Source: a virus (lineage: Duplodnaviria; Caudoviricetes). Taken from it: a stretch of 64,000 nt of DNA. A program made the translations under genes and the position numbers. Below are positions 3,001 to 35,495 of the stretch, piece after piece. The notes under the pieces were generated by a model that had not been told where the DNA came from, searched no databases, and saw only the letters and a list, made by a program, of their open reading frames with translations. The DNA lies in the IMG/VR virus record IMGVR_UViG_3300010275_000472, positions 6,276 to 70,275 of that record. One strand, 5' to 3'. The stretch's first letter is position 1. Every line of letters starts with the position of its first letter.

Positions 3001-6000
3001 ATGTTATACTGCCTACAAGACCACTGGATTGTAGTTCGCTAGGCATTTGGAAGCCTAGTGTCCGGAACAATTCGGTGGTTTTTTCTTTGCTTTCAGAGAT
3101 ATATAACACATCACTCCTGCGTACAAAACCTGCCGGATCATTATCCTTTGTATAGGCACTGGTCACTTTCTGCATATCGTTCAAAACGATGTGGTCTTCA
3201 ACCGGTCGCAGGTCCAGCACACACAGCACCGGCCTGCCATCCTGTGCTTTCACACTGCCAAACATCACAAGGCGGGTGTTCTGGCGGCTGCGCCCCTTGT
3301 TCTGGCTGGTCAGCACCATCACCGGATCGTCCAGCACTTCCGGAATACGCTTGATTTCTTCCAGCGTCATTTCCGGGTGGTCGTGCAGAATGCGGTCGAT
3401 CTTGTCACTGTTCATGTAGATGTCATTTTCCCGTGCACCGAGCTGCTGCAGTGTGTCACCGGTTCTGCCCAGAATAAACACCTCGTCATCCGAGCGTCCT
3501 TCTCTGTCCCACTCGTCAATTTTCCCTGCATATTCCGGGTTGATTTCATACCTTGCACCTTCCGCCGCACCCTTGTTCTCAAGGGCTGCGGCGTTTTCTT
3601 TTGCGGCGCGCAGGCTGTCCATAGCCCTCTCCGCATGGGCAAAGTATTCGTCCTGCAGCACCCGCTTTTCTGCCGCCGCAAGGCGCTGTGCTTTCAGTGC
3701 AGCTTTGTTCTCCGGGTCTCTTGCCAGCACTTCCTTTGCGCGGCTCACGATGTCGCTCAAAAGCTCCTTCACCTTGGTCATCACCTTGTGGATGCCGCCT
3801 GCCTTGCCTGCGTTCTTTTCAGCCTGCCCGCGCTGGAACTCCACCCAGCGCTTAAAGCTTGCTTCATCGCTGAAGATGCCGCGCCATGCGTCCGCCACAA
3901 GTTCTTCTGCGGCTTCCTCGTAGCTCAGCCCCTGCTGTGCATAGTCGGAAAGCTTTCCCCGGATCATCTCGTCAATGCCTTCAAAGCCCTCGCTCTTTGC
4001 CAGAAATTCCAGTGCATGCTGCTGCAGTGCCTGCGCACCCTCTGTATCCAGTGAGTTGTACCAGTGGTAGTCCTCGTGCAGGATCGTGCCAAATACATCC
4101 TCTGCCCGGTCGCTGAAGAAAATGCGCGCCGTCTCGGTGTCCACATAAGCCCTCACCCGGTCGCTGCCCTGCAGCACCGTTTTCAGCACCGCATCCGTGT
4201 TCGTGGCCTTTGCATTCAGTTCGATCAGCTGCGTGCCCACCTCGTTTGCCGTGCGCATCGTTCCCTTATACAGCACCCGGCCGCTGCCGCTGGTGCTTTC
4301 TGCTGTCAGCCTTCCGCCAAGGCTTGCGCGCTGCATGTTTCCGGCTTCCAGTTCTCCGCGTCCCTGCAGCCATGCCAGCTGCAGCGCTGCCCGTCCGCCG
4401 TCCTGTGCCAGCACGTAATCGGTGTTCACAGCAAGGCCGCTCATGCCCTGCGCCAGCTCCATAGCCTTGTCAAAGGTGGGCACATCTTCCATCTGTCCCA
4501 GCCGGTACAGGCTGCTGGCCGCGGCCGCATACCGCCCGGCATCTCCAATTTCTGTCGGCATGTTCCTGCTGATGGTCGCACTTGCCCCATCCGATACCTG
4601 CCATCGGGTCAGCTCCTGCTGCACCTCCCGCTGCTTTGTGGTCAGGCTCTGCTGTTCAAGGCCGTAAGTTTCCCGCATCCCGCCAGACTGTTCCGCCGGG
4701 CTGCTTTCCACCCTTTCCCCGGTGTTCTCCACGGCAGCTCCGCGCCGGCCCAGCTCACTTTCCGTCTGTGCCTGCTGCGCAGATCTGTCAGCTTCCATTT
4801 TTTCTACAATTGCGGCCGTTTTTTGTGCTTCAACTGTCGCGTTTTCGGTAGCTGCGGCCGGAGCCTGTGCTGCCCGCTGCTGTGTTGTCATTTCCCGCAA
4901 TACCTGCCGGGTCTTTGCTGCCGTTTCCGGCAGCTCAATACCGTATTCTTCCGCAAAGGCAGCGCGGTTCGCTTCATTGGCCGCATTCGGTGTAAATAGG
5001 TTGATGGTCTTGCTCGTAAGCTGCCCATCCTGCACAGCCGGGTTTTCGCTCTGTACCATCGGCGCAGTATCCTGTATGGTCGCAAATCCGCTTGCCGCCC
5101 CCGTCACTTCCGGCTGCACCGTTTCCTGTGTAGCAGCCGCAGGTTGTCGGATGCCTGCCGCAGCTTCTTCCGGTGTCTGCTGCATCGCCGTTCCCGGCTC
5201 CTGTGCCCGCACTTCGTCCTGCAATGCCTGCCGTGCCTGTTCCACCTTTCCTTCGTAGTATGCCTGCTTCACATTACCCACAATGCTGGCATCGCCGCCG
5301 TTCATCTTTGCAAGCCCTGTGCCCACAGCACCGCCCAAGGCACCGGATGCACCGCCCGTCAGGCCGCTTTCCAGCGCCGTAAAAAAGGTGTCGCTTTTAA
5401 ACAGGTCTGCCGCCGCTTCGCTGTCGCCCAGCGCTGCATCAATGGCCTTGTCCGCGTAGGTCTCCACAAAGGCCTGCATGGCGTTGTCCACGCCGCCGGA
5501 AATGGCATTTGCCACCGCCGGGTACTGCTGCGCCAGCGTTCCGTCCGCCGCCACGCTGCGCACCATGTCCGCCAGTTTGCCCGCCAGTGTATCCTTTGCG
5601 TAGTCACTGCCCATGGTCTTTGCAAGGTCTGCTGCGCCCACACTGTTGATGGCCCAGCCCGCGCCAAACTTTGCAAGGCCCCCGGCCAGCGTCTTGCCTG
5701 CGCTCTCGCCTTTTTCAATGCTCTGGCCCATGGCTTCCGCACCGCCCTGCGCACTCAGCACCGGCAGCACCCATGCCGGGTCAATGGCCGCCACCGCAAG
5801 GTTCTCGCCCGCGCTGCTCACAATGCCCAGTGCCTGCTTTGCAATGGGGCTAAGGCCCGCCTGGGCAGCGGCGGTCAGATCCTGTCCGCGCTTGTACAGC
5901 TGATAGCCAAAGCTCTTCTCCGGGTCTACGCTGTCATGCACTTCCGTTCCGGCAATGCGCGCCCGCATGTTGTCGATCTCCTGCTGCGTGTAACCTTTTT

Positions 6001-30717: not shown

Positions 30718-31722
30718 TTACTCCTTCAGATCCTTCACTGCCCTATCAAAGTCCGACACGATCTTCTGCGTAGGATTGAACAGGTCATACTCAGCTTCTG
30801 CCTTTTCTCTGGCCTGCCGGGCAGATATCTTGCCCTTGTCTGGCAGGATGTCATACCGCCGGAAGGACAGAAACTCGTTGATACTGGCGGCAAACTGTTC
30901 CATGGTGAAGGTATTTTCCCGCTCGATCAGGTCCTCGATATAGTCAAAGTAGCCCGACACGGTACGCTCCAGCTGGCGGATCTGTTTCTCGGACAGGTAG
31001 TTCTTTGCCACCGACACATCCGACTTGAGTACACGGCCTTCGGGGGCATTCTTCCATGTGGTCAGTCCCATGTGATCCTTGGTGTGGTCAGCCTTGTTAT
31101 ACACGATCTCTGCCGCCGTCTGGCCGGTGATGGCGTAATGGAACTTGTTCTGCACCATGGCATAGAAGTCCTTGGTCACCGGTGAATTGCGGTCATAGTC
31201 AATACTGCACTCGGCAAAGATATCCGTCACCTGCTGCCAGATGCGGCGCTCGCTGGCACGGATGGAGCGGACGCGCTCAAGCAGCTCGCGGAAATAATCC
31301 TTGCCAAAGGCATCCTTGCCTTGCTTTAAGCGTTCATCATCCAGCACAAAGCCTTTGGTCATATACTCTTTGAGAATGCCGGTCGCCCAGATACGGAAGT
31401 GTGTGGCCCGGCGGGAGTTGACACGGTAGCCCACGGAGATGATGGCATCGAGATTATAGAAGTTGGTTTCCTGTGTTTGCGTTTTGTCTTCAAGCGCACC
31501 GTGGTGAGTGGTTGTTTCCATTTTGGAAACAACCACTTTTTCGTCAAGCTCACCTTCTTCAAAAATCTTCTTCAGATGTTTGCTGATTGCAGGCTTTTGT
31601 ACACCAAACAGTTCTGCCATACCCTGCTGGGACAGCCAGATGCTCTCATCCTTCACAATTGCATCAACGGAAACATCCTCTTCCGCTGAGCGGTATATCA
31701 AAAACTGAAAGTTGTTTTCCAT
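30718..31722 (-). CDS. rhuM: RhuM-family DNA-binding protein
   Basis: IWLSQQGMAELF, YNLDAIISVGYRVNSRRATHFRIWAT, KGFVLDDERLK, RVRSIRASE. Confidence 0.9.
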   Translation of the reverse strand: MENNFQFLIYRSAEEDVSVDAIVKDESIWLSQQGMAELFGVQKPAISKHLKKIFEEGELDEKVVVSKMETTTHHGALEDKTQTQETNFYNLDAIISVGYRVNSRRATHFRIWATGILKEYMTKGFVLDDERLKQGKDAFGKDYFRELLERVRSIRASERRIWQQVTDIFAECSIDYDRNSPVTKDFYAMVQNKFHYAITGQTAAEIVYNKADHTKDHMGLTTWKNAPEGRVLKSDVSVAKNYLSEKQIRQLERTVSGYFDYIEDLIERENTFTMEQFAASINEFLSFRRYDILPDKGKISARQAREKAEAEYDLFNPTQKIVSDFDRAVKDLKE

Positions 31723-31769: not shown

Positions 31770-32603
31770 TTATTTTTGAGCCAGATCAAACAGATATGCG
31801 CTTGCTTCACCAAGCTCTGACTTCTGGCCGTCTGTCATGTAAGGCAAATACGGTTCAAATGCCTGATGATATTTTTCGGCCCAGTTCTGTTTTGCTTTTG
31901 CTGTTTTCAGGCCCTCGATTTTTGCCTGATACTTTTCTTCCGTTCGATGAATGATTTCCTTTACAGCATCATCCCGGAAGCTAAGGCTGCGATACTTCTT
32001 CAAATCAGCTGTGGCGCTTACCGGTGCACCGTACTTTTTACACTTTTCGAGTTCCATCAAGCGTCCAACGCAAAAATCATATCTTGTAAAAAAAGTGGCA
32101 GGTTCCGTGGTCGTCTGAAGGATTTTTGCGCTTTCCTGAGCCTGTTTCAGAAATTGTGGAGCCAAAACCTTTGCATTCGAGCGAGAATCAACAAGGCCAG
32201 TCTGCCCCATCCATTCGGGATTTGGAATATAAAACTGTTCCTCCCCGTCAAGCTCGTCTTCCTGTTCAATCCCTGCTAACCCATCCTTTATGCCTTTGAC
32301 TGTTCCATACATAATACTGAATACAGCCAGCGCGGCCCAAAAACCTACAATGCCGCAAAAGAACGACACTCCAATGCCACAGCTCGCGGAAGCAATAAAA
32401 AAGGCCAGCAAGCCAACTGCAAGGCTTATAAATACATATTTTGCGGGAAATTTGATTTTTGCAGGCTGGTTCCGGATACTTCCTGCAGCCTTCCCGACAG
32501 CTCCAGCTCCACGAAAAGCGGCATCAATGCCTTTATTCAGGCTCTTGTTGCCTGAACGCTTTCTATGCCACTCTTTACGGCCATAAGGTGACGATCTCCC
32601 CAT
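31770..32603 (-). CDS. AT-rich membrane-anchored hypothetical protein
   Basis: Two TM segments then a soluble helical domain; GGAGG RBS before MGRSS. Confidence 0.75.
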   Translation of the reverse strand: MGRSSPYGRKEWHRKRSGNKSLNKGIDAAFRGAGAVGKAAGSIRNQPAKIKFPAKYVFISLAVGLLAFFIASASCGIGVSFFCGIVGFWAALAVFSIMYGTVKGIKDGLAGIEQEDELDGEEQFYIPNPEWMGQTGLVDSRSNAKVLAPQFLKQAQESAKILQTTTEPATFFTRYDFCVGRLMELEKCKKYGAPVSATADLKKYRSLSFRDDAVKEIIHRTEEKYQAKIEGLKTAKAKQNWAEKYHQAFEPYLPYMTDGQKSELGEASAYLFDLAQK

Positions 32604-32619
32604 GATATTTCCTCCTGCT

Positions 32620-33249
32620 TCAGATATCCCGGCAGAGCCCCACGGCCTTGCCTTCAATGACAACGGTGTTCATTTCCTCTTTGGTGAGGATGATGCTCTC
32701 AAACGCCGGGTTTTCCGGGCGGAGCTCTATAAAGTTTTCGTGGAGATACACATGCTTCAGGGTAGCTTCCTCGCCGATGCGCACCGCTGCGATTTCTCCC
32801 TGCTCCACCTCCGGTTGGCTGCGAATCGCCACCAGATCACCGTCGTGGATGCGGGGCTCCATGCTGTCGCCCTTGCAGGTCAGCGTAAAGGTGGAGTGCC
32901 AGCGGGAAGGCACACAAACCATTTGCTCTACATTCTCTTCCGCCGTGATGGGCGTCCCGCAGGCGATCCGGCCTACCAGCGGCACCCAATCCATCTCCGG
33001 CATAGGCTGGAAGCCCGGCGGGATGGTGGGCTTCTTGGGCTCCGGCTGTTCTTCCCAGCCCATCAGGTAGGCGGGGGTGGTCTGCAATATCTTTGCAAGT
33101 TCCGCAAAGATATCCACAGGGACTTTTTCAATATCGCCCTTTTCATATCTATAGATCGTAGCCGGAGAAACGCCAAGACGCTCAGCAACCTTTTCTGCCG
33201 ACAATCCAATCTCTTTTCTGCGTTGCTTCATTCTTTCACCGGTGGTCAT
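32620..33249 (-). CDS. CI/LexA-type repressor with S24 peptidase
   Basis: HTH; cleavage site IACG; catalytic GDSM and TLK motifs. Confidence 0.92.
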   Translation of the reverse strand: MTTGERMKQRRKEIGLSAEKVAERLGVSPATIYRYEKGDIEKVPVDIFAELAKILQTTPAYLMGWEEQPEPKKPTIPPGFQPMPEMDWVPLVGRIACGTPITAEENVEQMVCVPSRWHSTFTLTCKGDSMEPRIHDGDLVAIRSQPEVEQGEIAAVRIGEEATLKHVYLHENFIELRPENPAFESIILTKEEMNTVVIEGKAVGLCRDI

Positions 33250-33284
33250 TTTTATCACCTCTTGATATGAGAATACACGAAAAG

Positions 33285-33403
33285 TCGCAAAATTGCAATA
33301 GTTAAATGCAATTTCAAGAAATTATTTTGCAAAAATGCGAGCATTCTATTGACTTTCATTTCTGCGAGTGCTATCCTATGTGCAGAAGCTCGCATAATTG
33401 CGA
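33285..33403. promoter_or_regulatory. Prophage 2 switch: operators T(C/T)GCA-N4-TGC(G/A)A and cro promoter
   Basis: Copies at 33285, 33327, 33390, plus one after cro at 33641; TTGACT-17-TATCCT (33349-33377). Confidence 0.8.
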
Positions 33404-33427
33404 GAATGTAAAGGAGGTGAAGAAGCA

Positions 33428-33637
33428 ATGTCTACCAACATGAATCTGCTGCGTGGAAAGCTTAAAGAGCGCAGCATGACCCAGCAGGAACTTGCGCATA
33501 AAATCGGCATGGATTCTAGTACTTTATCGCGAAAACTTGCATCGGACGGACTGAAATTCACGGTCGGTGAGATGCACGATATCGCGGCAACATTGAATCT
33601 GACCGCTAACGAGTGCAAATCTATTTTTTTGCTGTGA
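33428..33637 (+). CDS. Cro-like HTH protein
   Basis: LRGKLKERSMTQQELAHKIGMDSSTLSRKL; AAGGAGGTG RBS. Confidence 0.85.
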   Translation: MSTNMNLLRGKLKERSMTQQELAHKIGMDSSTLSRKLASDGLKFTVGEMHDIAATLNLTANECKSIFLL

Positions 33638-33678
33638 AACTCGCATTTTTGCAAGTTTGTCCAAAGGAGGTGAAGAAG

Positions 33679-33771
33679 ATGACGCAAAACGAACTCACTC
33701 AAGTGCTTCTGTGTGCGAGTCTGGTTCTCGGCATTGTGACAGCATTCCAGCGTTGGAAAAATCACTGGTAA
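33679..33771 (+). CDS. 30-aa hydrophobic peptide (not in ORF track)
   Basis: AAAGGAGGTG RBS; MTQNELTQVLLCASLVLGIVTAFQRWKNHW. Confidence 0.65.
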   Translation: MTQNELTQVLLCASLVLGIVTAFQRWKNHW

Positions 33772-34273
33772 AAGTTTTTGTGATGATTCCTTTATTGCTG
33801 AAAACTTTCAGCTTATAGGGCGCATTCTCTGCAATGTGTTTTGTGCTCCCAGTTGAAGATAAGACCATGTGCTCATATCCGAGGCCTTCAACTTTAATCG
33901 GGAAAATATCGGAATACCACTCTGACCGACTTACTTCTTTGTTCCCGTGCTTCCGGCTGTTTGTCAGAAGCTTCAGACGATACTCGCCGAATACGCACTC
34001 ACCCAGTTCAGAAGAAAGTTCGAGTCGGCTCAAGGTAATTGCTTCTCTGGACTTATTGATAAAGCAGATATTGAGGACCTCTGTGTATTCCTTTTCAGGA
34101 CTGGGCCCCAAACAGAAAACGTTCTGAACTTCGACGATGAGATTTTTTCGATTTTTGATCTTATCCGATGCAAAGTTCCAGATCGACAAAGCAAAACTGG
34201 CTACTGCGATTAAGAACGTCACATTATCCCGCACATTCAGCCACTCAACTATTTTGTTCCACATATCATGCAC
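33695..34273 (-). CDS. Reverse-oriented moron, N-terminal TM plus beta-rich domain
   Basis: AT-rich; promoter TTGTGC-17-TAAAAT just upstream. Confidence 0.8.
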   Translation of the reverse strand: MHDMWNKIVEWLNVRDNVTFLIAVASFALSIWNFASDKIKNRKNLIVEVQNVFCLGPSPEKEYTEVLNICFINKSREAITLSRLELSSELGECVFGEYRLKLLTNSRKHGNKEVSRSEWYSDIFPIKVEGLGYEHMVLSSTGSTKHIAENAPYKLKVFSNKGIITKTFTSDFSNAGMLSQCREPDSHTEALE

Positions 34274-34345
34274 ATCCTTCCTGTTTTCTCCATTTTACCG
34301 CAGGAGCGAGGTGCGCACAAGAAGGTGAACCACATGGACAACAAC

Positions 34346-34383
34346 AAAAAGCCCAGCGAACCTGCGGAAGAGGAACGCTGGGC
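34346..34383 (-). terminator. Terminator of second moron transcript
   Basis: GCCCAGCG / CGCTGGGC followed by T5 on - strand. Confidence 0.7.
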
Positions 34384-34402
34384 GCTGAAGGAGGTGAACA
34401 CG

Positions 34403-34483
34403 ATGAAGAATCCGTTAGCTGTTCAGATTCTGGCTCTGAGCATCCAGATCCTTGCACTGGTTGTCATTTTATTAAAGAAATAA
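34403..34483 (+). CDS. 26-aa hydrophobic peptide with KK tail
   Basis: AAGGAGGTG RBS; MKNPLAVQILALSIQILALVVILLKK. Confidence 0.65.
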   Translation: MKNPLAVQILALSIQILALVVILLKK

Positions 34484-34754
34484 ACATGGATGCAGCAGCA
34501 ATTAAAATCGCAATCAAATTGTAAAGCCGGTTGATTCGATCTTCTTTTGCCTGCTCACGGTCTTTTTCCTCCTGTTTTCGCTGACTCTCTTCAAACTGCT
34601 GTTGCAGCTTTTTCAGATTTTCAGCGGTACTCAGTTGAGCCGACAACTGCATCGCATGTTCTTGCGCCGCAGCGCGTGCAACTGTAGCCATCGCTTCATG
34701 GTCTCGCGCAACTGCATTAGCTGAGCATTTAACCACATCATTCAGTTCAGACAT
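34464..34754 (-). CDS. Reverse-oriented moron, coiled coil with C-terminal TM anchor
   Basis: GGGAGGTG RBS; promoter TTGTGG-17-TAGAAT upstream. Confidence 0.75.
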   Translation of the reverse strand: MSELNDVVKCSANAVARDHEAMATVARAAAQEHAMQLSAQLSTAENLKKLQQQFEESQRKQEEKDREQAKEDRINRLYNLIAILIAAASMFISLIK

Positions 34755-34826
34755 TATTTTCACCTCCCTTCTGTCTCTCTATTCTATCGCAGAAGGGAGC
34801 CACCCACAAGGAGGTACATCTTCACC

Positions 34827-35495
34827 ATGAACGACATTATCTTATCCACCCAGAACGGCGAACCGGTGGCATCCAGCCGGGACGTTGCCAAGCGCTTTGG
34901 CAAGGAGCACAAAGACGTGCTCCGCGCCATCAAGAGTATCACAGCGCAAAATTGCGCTGTGACCCAGATGTTCTACCAGAGCGAGTACACCGCAGGCACT
35001 GGCAAGAAGTACCCCATGTACCTGATGAACCGTGACGGCTTTTCCCTGCTGGCCATGGGCTTTACCGGCAAGGAAGCCGTGCAGTGGAAGCTCAAGTACA
35101 TCGAAGCCTTCAACCAGATGGAAAAGCAGCTGGCCGCGCAGCACAAAGAGCAGCAGGCCGTGCAGGATGCCAACATCCAGAACGCCATCGACCGGGTGAT
35201 CGAAGCCCGGAAGAAGCTGGACGAGAACACCGCTTTTCTGGACGAGCGCCGCAAGAACCGCGAGGACAGCAAGGCCAAGTATATGCAGGTCAAGGCCCTG
35301 TGCGGCGAGTTCAAGGCCATTTACGGCCAGCATTGCGACACGGTGCGCACCATGGAGAACGTGGTGCGCGGCTCCCAGAGCTTCCTTACCAACGCCATTG
35401 ACAGCCTGACCATCGTTGCCAAAGGCTACCCGTTCTACGCCGCCCTGATGGACAGCCTGCTGGATGGGCTGCCCGCCGAAAAGAAGGAGGAATAA
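34827..35495 (+). CDS. rha: Rha-family phage regulatory protein
   Basis: ASSRDVAKRFGKEHKDVLRAI, YLMNRDGFSLLAMGFTGKEAVQWKLKYIEAFNQME. Confidence 0.92.
   Translation: MNDIILSTQNGEPVASSRDVAKRFGKEHKDVLRAIKSITAQNCAVTQMFYQSEYTAGTGKKYPMYLMNRDGFSLLAMGFTGKEAVQWKLKYIEAFNQMEKQLAAQHKEQQAVQDANIQNAIDRVIEARKKLDENTAFLDERRKNREDSKAKYMQVKALCGEFKAIYGQHCDTVRTMENVVRGSQSFLTNAIDSLTIVAKGYPFYAALMDSLLDGLPAEKKEE

Follow-up and report, generated by a model that had tools for sequence, protein, structure and literature searches.

Prophage defence genes that are paired with a small cognate inhibitor in a noncontiguous operon have been described for Tha/Ith of S. aureus phage 80alpha (PMC11087260) and Tai/Ati of phi80 (PMC11364771); in both, the two genes are on opposite strands and their expression is mutually exclusive between lysogeny and lysis. 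Noncontiguous operons, or excludons, consist of opposite-strand neighbours whose overlapping transcripts repress each other reciprocally (PMC7154746, PMC12288877). Type I toxin-antitoxin (TA) loci are a further system for comparison; hydrophobic peptides with charged tails are a hallmark of type I toxins (PMC7699646, PMC8309996), the characterised type I toxins of prophages have their own promoters (PMC7699646), and SR7 is an antisense RNA with a second function as the message for a protein (PMC7834092).

The locus described here lies in a 64,000-nt stretch of phage DNA, which was analysed as a whole and is referred to as the window. On its lytic strand, pep1 (33679-33771, plus strand), encoding a 30-aa peptide with a single TM helix, converges on the reverse gene rev1 (33695-34264, minus strand), encoding a 189-aa protein, and the two genes share a dual-coding overlap of 77 nt (33695-33771, both strands). 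As in Tha/Ith, a prophage gene that would be expressed in the lysogen has a small and putatively cognate partner on the opposite strand, antisense transcription would make lysogeny and lysis exclusive, and the host belongs to the Bacillota (PMC11087260). Tha, however, is a soluble HEPN RNase encoded in the cI operon and the nested antisense gene is the small ith with its own promoter, whereas here the large gene is nested and both products are membrane proteins with no sequence or fold relation to Tha and Ith. The likeness to Tai/Ati is that of a candidate defence gene placed backwards in a lytic operon, next to a very small putative counter-defence gene of that operon (PMC11364771), with a partner in only some members of the family. 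By comparison, tai is located in the late (Q-controlled) operon, Tai blocks tail assembly and both Tai and Ati are soluble, whereas the pair described here is located in the early operon right after cro, overlaps at the 3' ends and shows no homology to Tai/Ati.

Type I TA loci such as those of C. difficile phiCD630 (PMC7699646) share with this locus the short hydrophobic peptide with a charged tail, a convergent antisense transcript over the 3' end of the peptide gene, and the prophage location. Their antitoxins, however, are short non-coding RNAs and their toxins have promoters of their own, whereas here the antisense RNA is a message that encodes the 189-aa Rev1, and pep1 belongs to the PR operon. 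The excludon, in turn, is a general regulatory layout, which is packaged here as a shufflable cassette with a promoter/SD junction element. While a noncontiguous-operon or type I TA-like layout is therefore known, the membrane micropeptides, the mobility of the cassette and its recurrence are notable in this locus. Our preferred reading, to which we give a probability of about 40%, is that cassette 1 is a noncontiguous-operon cognate pair, in which the peptide is the lytic-cycle partner of Rev1.

Immunity region and recurrence of the convergent layout

The genes of this region, namely a repressor gene, cro, two reverse genes and rha, form the immunity switch of a temperate phage. The cI-like repressor gene (S24/HTH; 32620-33258, minus strand) is divergent from a cro-like HTH gene (33428-33637, plus strand; Pfam HTH_26/HTH_3, phrog_4583), which is the first gene of the rightward, lytic operon; the next gene of this operon after the two cassettes encodes a Rha-family regulator (34827-35495, plus strand; Pfam Phage_pRha, E=3e-30). 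The minus-strand genes rev1 and rev2 are nested between the plus-strand genes cro and rha, which is the arrangement of a noncontiguous operon. No plus-strand terminator-like site was found from cro to rha, and the PR transcript should therefore cross both reverse genes in antisense. Elsewhere in the lysogeny module, a RhuM-family gene (30718-31722, minus strand) matches the PADLOC candidate defence family PDC-S05 (E=1.7e-160), and a 297-aa ORF with internal TM segments (31770-32663, minus strand), located between the repressor gene and rhuM, showed only a weak match to phrog_7974.

The start of pep1 is located 41 nt past the cro stop and follows a full SD (33664-33673) by 7-8 nt; a consensus scan found no promoter-like site between cro and pep1. 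These coordinates agree with an earlier note on this DNA, which had described a 30-aa peptide with a perfect RBS after cro, overlapped over 77 bp by a reverse gene. A 19-nt SD-start word was found in four copies, at 33411 (cro), 33664 (pep1), 34319 and 34388. For rev1, the ATG at 34264 was taken as the start codon and the GTG at 34273 was discounted, since all close homologues are uniformly 189 aa long. The reverse gene is AT-rich, as had been reported, with a GC content of 0.42-0.46 across rev1 versus 0.56-0.63 in the flanks.

Between cro and cassette 1, an operator-like 15-mer (33640-33654) was identified that has a perfect inverted copy in the cI/cro intergenic region (33327-33341); the number of matches observed with these two exact copies was reached in 0 of 100 shuffles. 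Half-sites related to this word are found at 33389-33404. The copy after cro could represent a remote looping operator, or it could block transcription of rev1, for which no terminator was found. A hairpin at the same position (33640-33654) was considered as a terminator and rejected, as it is only weakly folded and represents the operator-like palindrome.

The window was scanned for SD-bearing, TM-containing ORFs of 20-75 aa that converge on the 3' end of a larger ORF. Such a partner was found at 3 of the 69 ORFs of at least 80 aa, namely at rev1, at rev2 and at a gene of prophage 1; apart from rev1, these are exactly the places (34346-34820 and 24347-25105) where the layout had been said to recur, and this recurrence exceeds chance. 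In the second cassette, pep2 (34403-34483, plus strand; strong SD at 34388) encodes a 26-aa single-TM peptide, or one of 49 aa when a start at the junction ATG (34334) is assumed, and overlaps rev2 (34464-34754, minus strand) by 20 nt. Rev2, like its homologues, is 96 aa long; it is tail-anchored through a C-terminal TM helix, and its N-terminal part is helical. In prophage 1, the reverse gene (24486-24926, plus strand), encoding a protein of ~143-146 aa with an N-terminal TM helix, overlaps by 47 nt its peptide counterpart, a 58-aa ORF with two TM segments that directly follows the cro gene of that phage (24880-25056, minus strand).

Small hydrophobic ORFs could arise as by-products, if an SD-ATG left behind by recombination gives access to a T-rich frame on the antisense strand, which then reads as hydrophobic by chance. 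The left edge of the cassette is indeed an SD word common to neighbouring genes, and a frame antisense to a hydrophilic tail will be hydrophobic in any case; such an ORF was, however, found at none of the 66 other genes in the window.

Selection on pep1 and its association with reverse proteins

For comparison, 60 related loci were retrieved. The ORF, its SD and a near-identical peptide are retained in all 36 loci (36/36) whose reverse gene is at least 68% identical to rev1. DNA identity in the overlap is 86-94%, versus 66-72% in the rev1 body, with reverse proteins that are 68-76% identical. Read in the pep1 frame, the overlap shows a pS of 0.22-0.36 and a pN of 0.02-0.06, whereas in the rev1 frame pS is 0.03-0.05 and pN is 0.08-0.16, all four ranges being based on small counts of 5-10 substitutions per comparison; in the rev1 body, pS is 0.74-0.80 and pN is 0.14-0.24. 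The third codon position of one frame faces the second position of the other and, because the codon positions are opposed in this way, pep1 and rev1 compete for the same sites, with the peptide frame winning. The pattern of substitutions thus indicates that pep1 is a genuine coding gene under purifying selection, at the expense of rev1. Conservation of the C-terminal tail of Rev1 for a function of Rev1 itself was also considered, and was rejected since the substitutions reveal constraint on the peptide frame.

The Pep1 peptide has a polar N-terminus, one TM helix and a basic/aromatic C-terminus. Relatives of rev1 at 28-50% identity, which were found in Gemmiger formicilis, a Dorea-like genome, several IMG/VR lineages and the cultured Faecalibacterium phage Aster, are accompanied by SD-bearing single-TM peptides of 25-30 aa that likewise have a polar N-terminus and a basic C-terminus and are visibly related to pep1. 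Over these relatives and the window, the overlap between peptide and reverse gene measures -1, 4, 14, 20, 23, 51, 57 or 77 nt, and a mere by-product of the rev1 tail would not have been kept through these changes of register. With motif and length conserved through deep lineages and differing registers, and with the peptide frame selected at the cost of rev1, an origin of pep1 as a chance by-product is hardly credible. A survey of post-cro regions in related loci, which had been proposed earlier, showed that peptide/reverse-gene pairs do co-occur, though not universally. In Aster (PP479941, locus L061), two SD-bearing TM-peptide ORFs that are unannotated in GenBank (3993-4070 and 3259-3417, both on the minus strand) were found; the first overlaps the rev1 relative orf33 by 51 nt, and the second overlaps the rev2-like orf34 by 32 nt. 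Aster, which is induced at 40 C from Faecalibacterium sp. HTF-238 (PMC11792537), thus has both cassettes of the window.

The properties of the peptide bear on the type I TA-like system that the earlier note had inferred. Under this hypothesis, the peptide would be a membrane-damaging toxin, and the 3' part of the rev1 mRNA would pair with its message, block the SD and trigger decay, silencing leaky transcription from PR in the lysogen. A length of 26-30 aa, one TM helix and a basic/aromatic C-terminus fit the profile of a toxin. Convergent, 3'-overlapping genes also resemble the type I TA loci bsrG/SR4 and txpA/RatA of Bacillota prophages. On the other hand, neither peptide matched a family in Pfam, toxin families included, or in PHROG or PADLOC, Rfam yielded only chance-level matches and no antitoxin RNA, and no significant folded structure was found in the pep1 mRNA or in the region past the rev1 stop. 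No separate small-RNA promoter/terminator unit antisense to pep1 was found either, the sole antisense unit being the rev1 gene. [quoted passage not shown] The antisense overlap described in the earlier note and the toxin-like profile of the peptide stand, whereas the missing peptide promoter and the missing toxin- or antitoxin-family match speak against a type I TA-like system.

Rev1 itself matches phrog_17486, an unnamed family, over residues 18-172 (E=4.7e-11), as does its relative in the Dorea-like genome (E=2.7e-11), and the rev1 family comprises 260 clusters at 50% identity (E<=0.001). No match to Rev1 was found in Pfam or PADLOC, and hence no homology to known defence proteins by those searches; ten other reverse proteins matched nothing in Pfam, PHROG or PADLOC. 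In the AlphaFold model of Rev1 (pLDDT 76), an N-terminal TM helix is followed by a beta-sandwich, which is in line with the earlier proposal that the reverse gene encodes a membrane protein. In a Foldseek search, this model matched, besides uncharacterised phage proteins, only folds of a generic kind (beta-sandwich, pilin-like, LEA_2-like). The positive-inside rule would place the sandwich domain in the cytoplasm.

In a wider sample of viral contigs, a detectable TM peptide was absent in 25 of 41 distinct rev1-family proteins; distant loci of this family were scanned in four sub-alignments, as an alignment of 50 distant members was too diverse. In groups at 46-51% identity, a soluble ORF of 46 or 67 aa was found in place of the TM peptide, and a crude and noisy survey of neighbour orientation showed that several of the peptide-less members face cro directly. 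The partner is thus dispensable, many members of the rev1 family being found without it. A conserved soluble ORF of 44-46 aa, without a family match and preceded by the same SD word as pep1, is located between cro and the rev1 relative in Aster (L061, 4085-4219, minus strand) as well as in L045-L052 and L010; it lies beside the TM peptide in Aster, replaces the peptide in the 50%-identity group and is truncated in L049. In L081, the peptide ORF is seemingly disrupted, and the 182-aa rev1-family protein is near-identical to that of L076-L078; this locus is possibly a natural case of partner loss with an intact reverse gene.

The absence of the peptide beside many rev1-family genes, and the different soluble ORF (44-46 aa) found at the same place in some relatives, would be expected if the two genes were independent, with the peptide as an ordinary small membrane protein of early lytic growth and rev1 as an unrelated lysogenic-conversion gene. 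Their overlap and adjacency would suffice for co-inheritance. However, the pairing persists where the overlap is only -1 to 14 nt, and also between reverse proteins of 28-37% identity, and the small-partner layout is found with at least 8 unrelated reverse families, with the type of the partner matching that of the reverse protein. Independence of the two genes is therefore considered quite unlikely.

This match in type was seen in 24 of 25 distinct junction-driven membrane reverse proteins, which have a TM small partner; the count applies a hydropathy score of ~1.9 or more and omits a 273-aa membrane protein, whose 90-aa TM partner is above the size limit of the scan. The three soluble reverse families are represented by a 205-aa protein with no partner, a 197-aa protein with a 79-aa soluble partner and a 64-aa protein with a 66-aa soluble partner. 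When counted by family, with non-junction families included, a TM partner is found in 8/8 membrane and 0/3 soluble families (Fisher ~0.006, hand-calculated); the membrane families that are each paired with a TM small partner number at least 8 and are unrelated to one another. The rev2-like family is mosaic, in that the N-terminal domain is exchanged between members and the C-terminal TM segment is passed on together with the peptide as a unit; between L034 and L035, identity is 86-100% and then falls to 43-60%, and between L034 and L003 it is 36-63% and then climbs to 80-93%.

The match in partner type and the inheritance as a module point to a relationship at the protein level between the small gene and its reverse partner; for the latter, physical linkage of the peptide to the neighbouring part of the reverse gene could be sufficient. 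A generic RNA-silenced toxin leaves unexplained why soluble reverse genes have soluble partners or none. The pairing of TM with TM and of soluble with soluble or no partner therefore favours a cognate protein pair over such a toxin.

Cassette mobility, junction elements and predicted reverse transcripts

A comparison of the window with the 60 related loci by blastn delimited cassette 1 as a mobile block of ~720 bp (33664-34384), which keeps an identity of 96-99% even between loci with flanks that are only 65-80% identical or not related at all. The left edge (33644-33664) is at the pep1 SD (33664) in most loci and 4-20 nt upstream of it in some, and the right edge is found between 34326 and 34395 across loci. 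These alignments indicate that pep1, rev1 and the promoter element transfer together as one block.

The right part of the cassette is formed by a junction element of 60-75 nt. Its first copy, B1 (34279-34344, minus strand), comprises the predicted rev1 promoter and the rev1 SD and, on the plus strand, the SD and the ATG (34334) of the next forward ORF; the second copy, B2 (34761-34836, minus strand), comprises the predicted rev2 promoter and, on the plus strand, the SD and the ATG of rha. An nhmmer search found 1-5 junction copies per related locus, including two in phage Aster, all in one orientation and each immediately upstream of a reverse gene. In 38 distinct copies, the minus strand shows conservation of TTGTGn, a 17-nt spacer, TAnAAT and the SD of the reverse gene, and the parts conserved on the plus strand are GGAGGT and the start codon (ATG) of the forward gene that follows. 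Other loci have the cassette immediately behind seven initial codons of a Rha/antirepressor gene, whose start is regenerated by the junction copy at the right end of the cassette; this suggests that cassettes are gained and lost through recombination between junction copies.

Four to five junction elements are found within 3.5-4.5 kb in the IMG/VR contigs L066 and L067, indicating arrays of several consecutive reverse cassettes. Each junction of the window also contains a 10-nt inverted repeat (34761-34800 and 34270-34309) that brackets the predicted -10, with one arm complementary to the SD of the reverse gene and the other located within the promoter spacer. If a reverse transcript enters the element from upstream, these arms could pair and hide the SD, which would leave only transcripts from the own promoter to be translated; the forward PR transcript would contain the same hairpin.

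The predicted rev1 promoter, TTGTGC-17-TAAAAT on the minus strand, has its -35 at 34320-34315 and its -10 at 34297-34292; that of rev2 has its -35 at 34809-34804 and its -10 at 34786-34781. The rev1 promoter matches the consensus at 8 of 12 positions, which is under the threshold of the scan, and the scan hence did not list it. An own promoter for the reverse gene had been claimed earlier; this claim gains from the conservation of the hexamers and their spacing in the 38 junction copies, but the match to the consensus is only 8/12.

For rev2, an intrinsic terminator was predicted at 34338-34383 (minus strand; arms 34351-34363 and 34371-34383, followed by a U-run), with a dG of -20 kcal/mol and a z of -4.0 versus shuffles. 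It is located inside the 5' leader of the forward ORF starting at 34334 and ~50 nt past the pep2 start codon, so that the predicted rev2 transcript contains the entire pep2 ORF together with its SD. At the equivalent site of other cassettes, the hairpin stems differ and the U-run is identical. Conservation of the forward leader from 34334 as protein was considered and rejected; the leader represents the reverse-strand terminator, and the retention of a U-run and of a stem, albeit of differing sequence, explains its apparent conservation. The terminator of the prophage 1 reverse gene (25069-25090, plus strand) consists of a G+C stem of 5 bp and a T7 run. It is located past the stop codon of cro and before the SD of the peptide, and the reverse transcript would therefore span the entire peptide ORF and its SD there as well. 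No terminator was found for rev1 within 330 nt in any context, and transcription of rev1 in the window would reach the palindrome at 33640-33654 and continue in antisense into cro. With regard to the features of a moron, rev1 shows low GC and a promoter-like element, and the rev2 and prophage 1 units have a terminator, which was not found for rev1. The predicted promoter element of the reverse units, the terminators of rev2 and prophage 1 and the lack of a plus-strand terminator together support a noncontiguous operon.

These predicted transcripts also bear on silencing by antisense RNA. The reverse transcripts of cassette 2 and prophage 1 are predicted to end beyond the SD of the peptide, as a type I TA-like system would require, and an antisense RNA that is also coding has a precedent in SR7 (PMC7834092). 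In some cassettes, however, the terminator U-run overlaps codons 2-6 of the forward ORF, which leaves the SD uncovered. Taken together with the properties of the peptide and of its partners, this makes a type I TA-like function rather unlikely. Even so, it is structurally unavoidable under every reading that the rev1 mRNA is antisense to the peptide ORF, and the main agent may be either the RNA pairing or the peptide itself.

Proposed function of cassette 1 and its implications for gut phages

If cassette 1 is a cognate pair, it would represent a mobile moron placed backwards in the early lytic operon. In the lysogen, PR would be repressed and the promoter in the junction element would drive expression of rev1. 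Rev1 would then act as a membrane-anchored protein with a role in host conversion, presumably exclusion or abortive defence. Upon induction or infection, the PR transcript would pass cro into the cassette, where the 30-aa membrane peptide would be translated, and would then run antisense over the whole of rev1 before reaching rha. Convergence and overlap could lead to polymerase collision and to formation of an RNA duplex, and thereby to mutually exclusive expression of the two genes. We infer that the peptide interacts with Rev1 and is most likely an inhibitor that acts in the membrane and switches Rev1 off in lytic growth, similar to Ith or Ati. A pure exclusion protein that blocks injection would have no need for a self-inhibitor, and such a function of Rev1 would count against the cognate-inhibitor reading.

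A broader and more tentative proposal, which we consider possible though doubtful, is that the post-cro arrays of temperate phages of gut Clostridia combine a shufflable lysogeny effector, often a membrane protein, with a cognate micropeptide that neutralises it in the membrane, wired through antisense and joined by a conserved bidirectional junction element.

The prophages of abundant gut commensals, including Faecalibacterium, Gemmiger, Dorea and relatives, are rich in unannotated genes. The comparisons presented here point to a class of genes of 25-60 residues that is real, selected and systematically paired with backward accessory genes. Gene callers overlook such small genes, even in the cultured phage Aster. 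In addition, the junction elements suggest a route by which cassettes may be exchanged between phages. If these pairs have a role in defence and self-immunity, the noncontiguous-operon logic known from Tha/Ith and Tai/Ati would also apply to effectors in the membrane and to inhibitors of micropeptide size, the layout would provide a simple genomic signature for finding systems of phage-phage conflict, and Aster, which is cultured and inducible, would represent a tractable test case. Should the proposal on cassette arrays also be true, the phages of these commensals would hold a large unannotated reservoir of membrane defence/self-immunity or toxin/immunity pairs.
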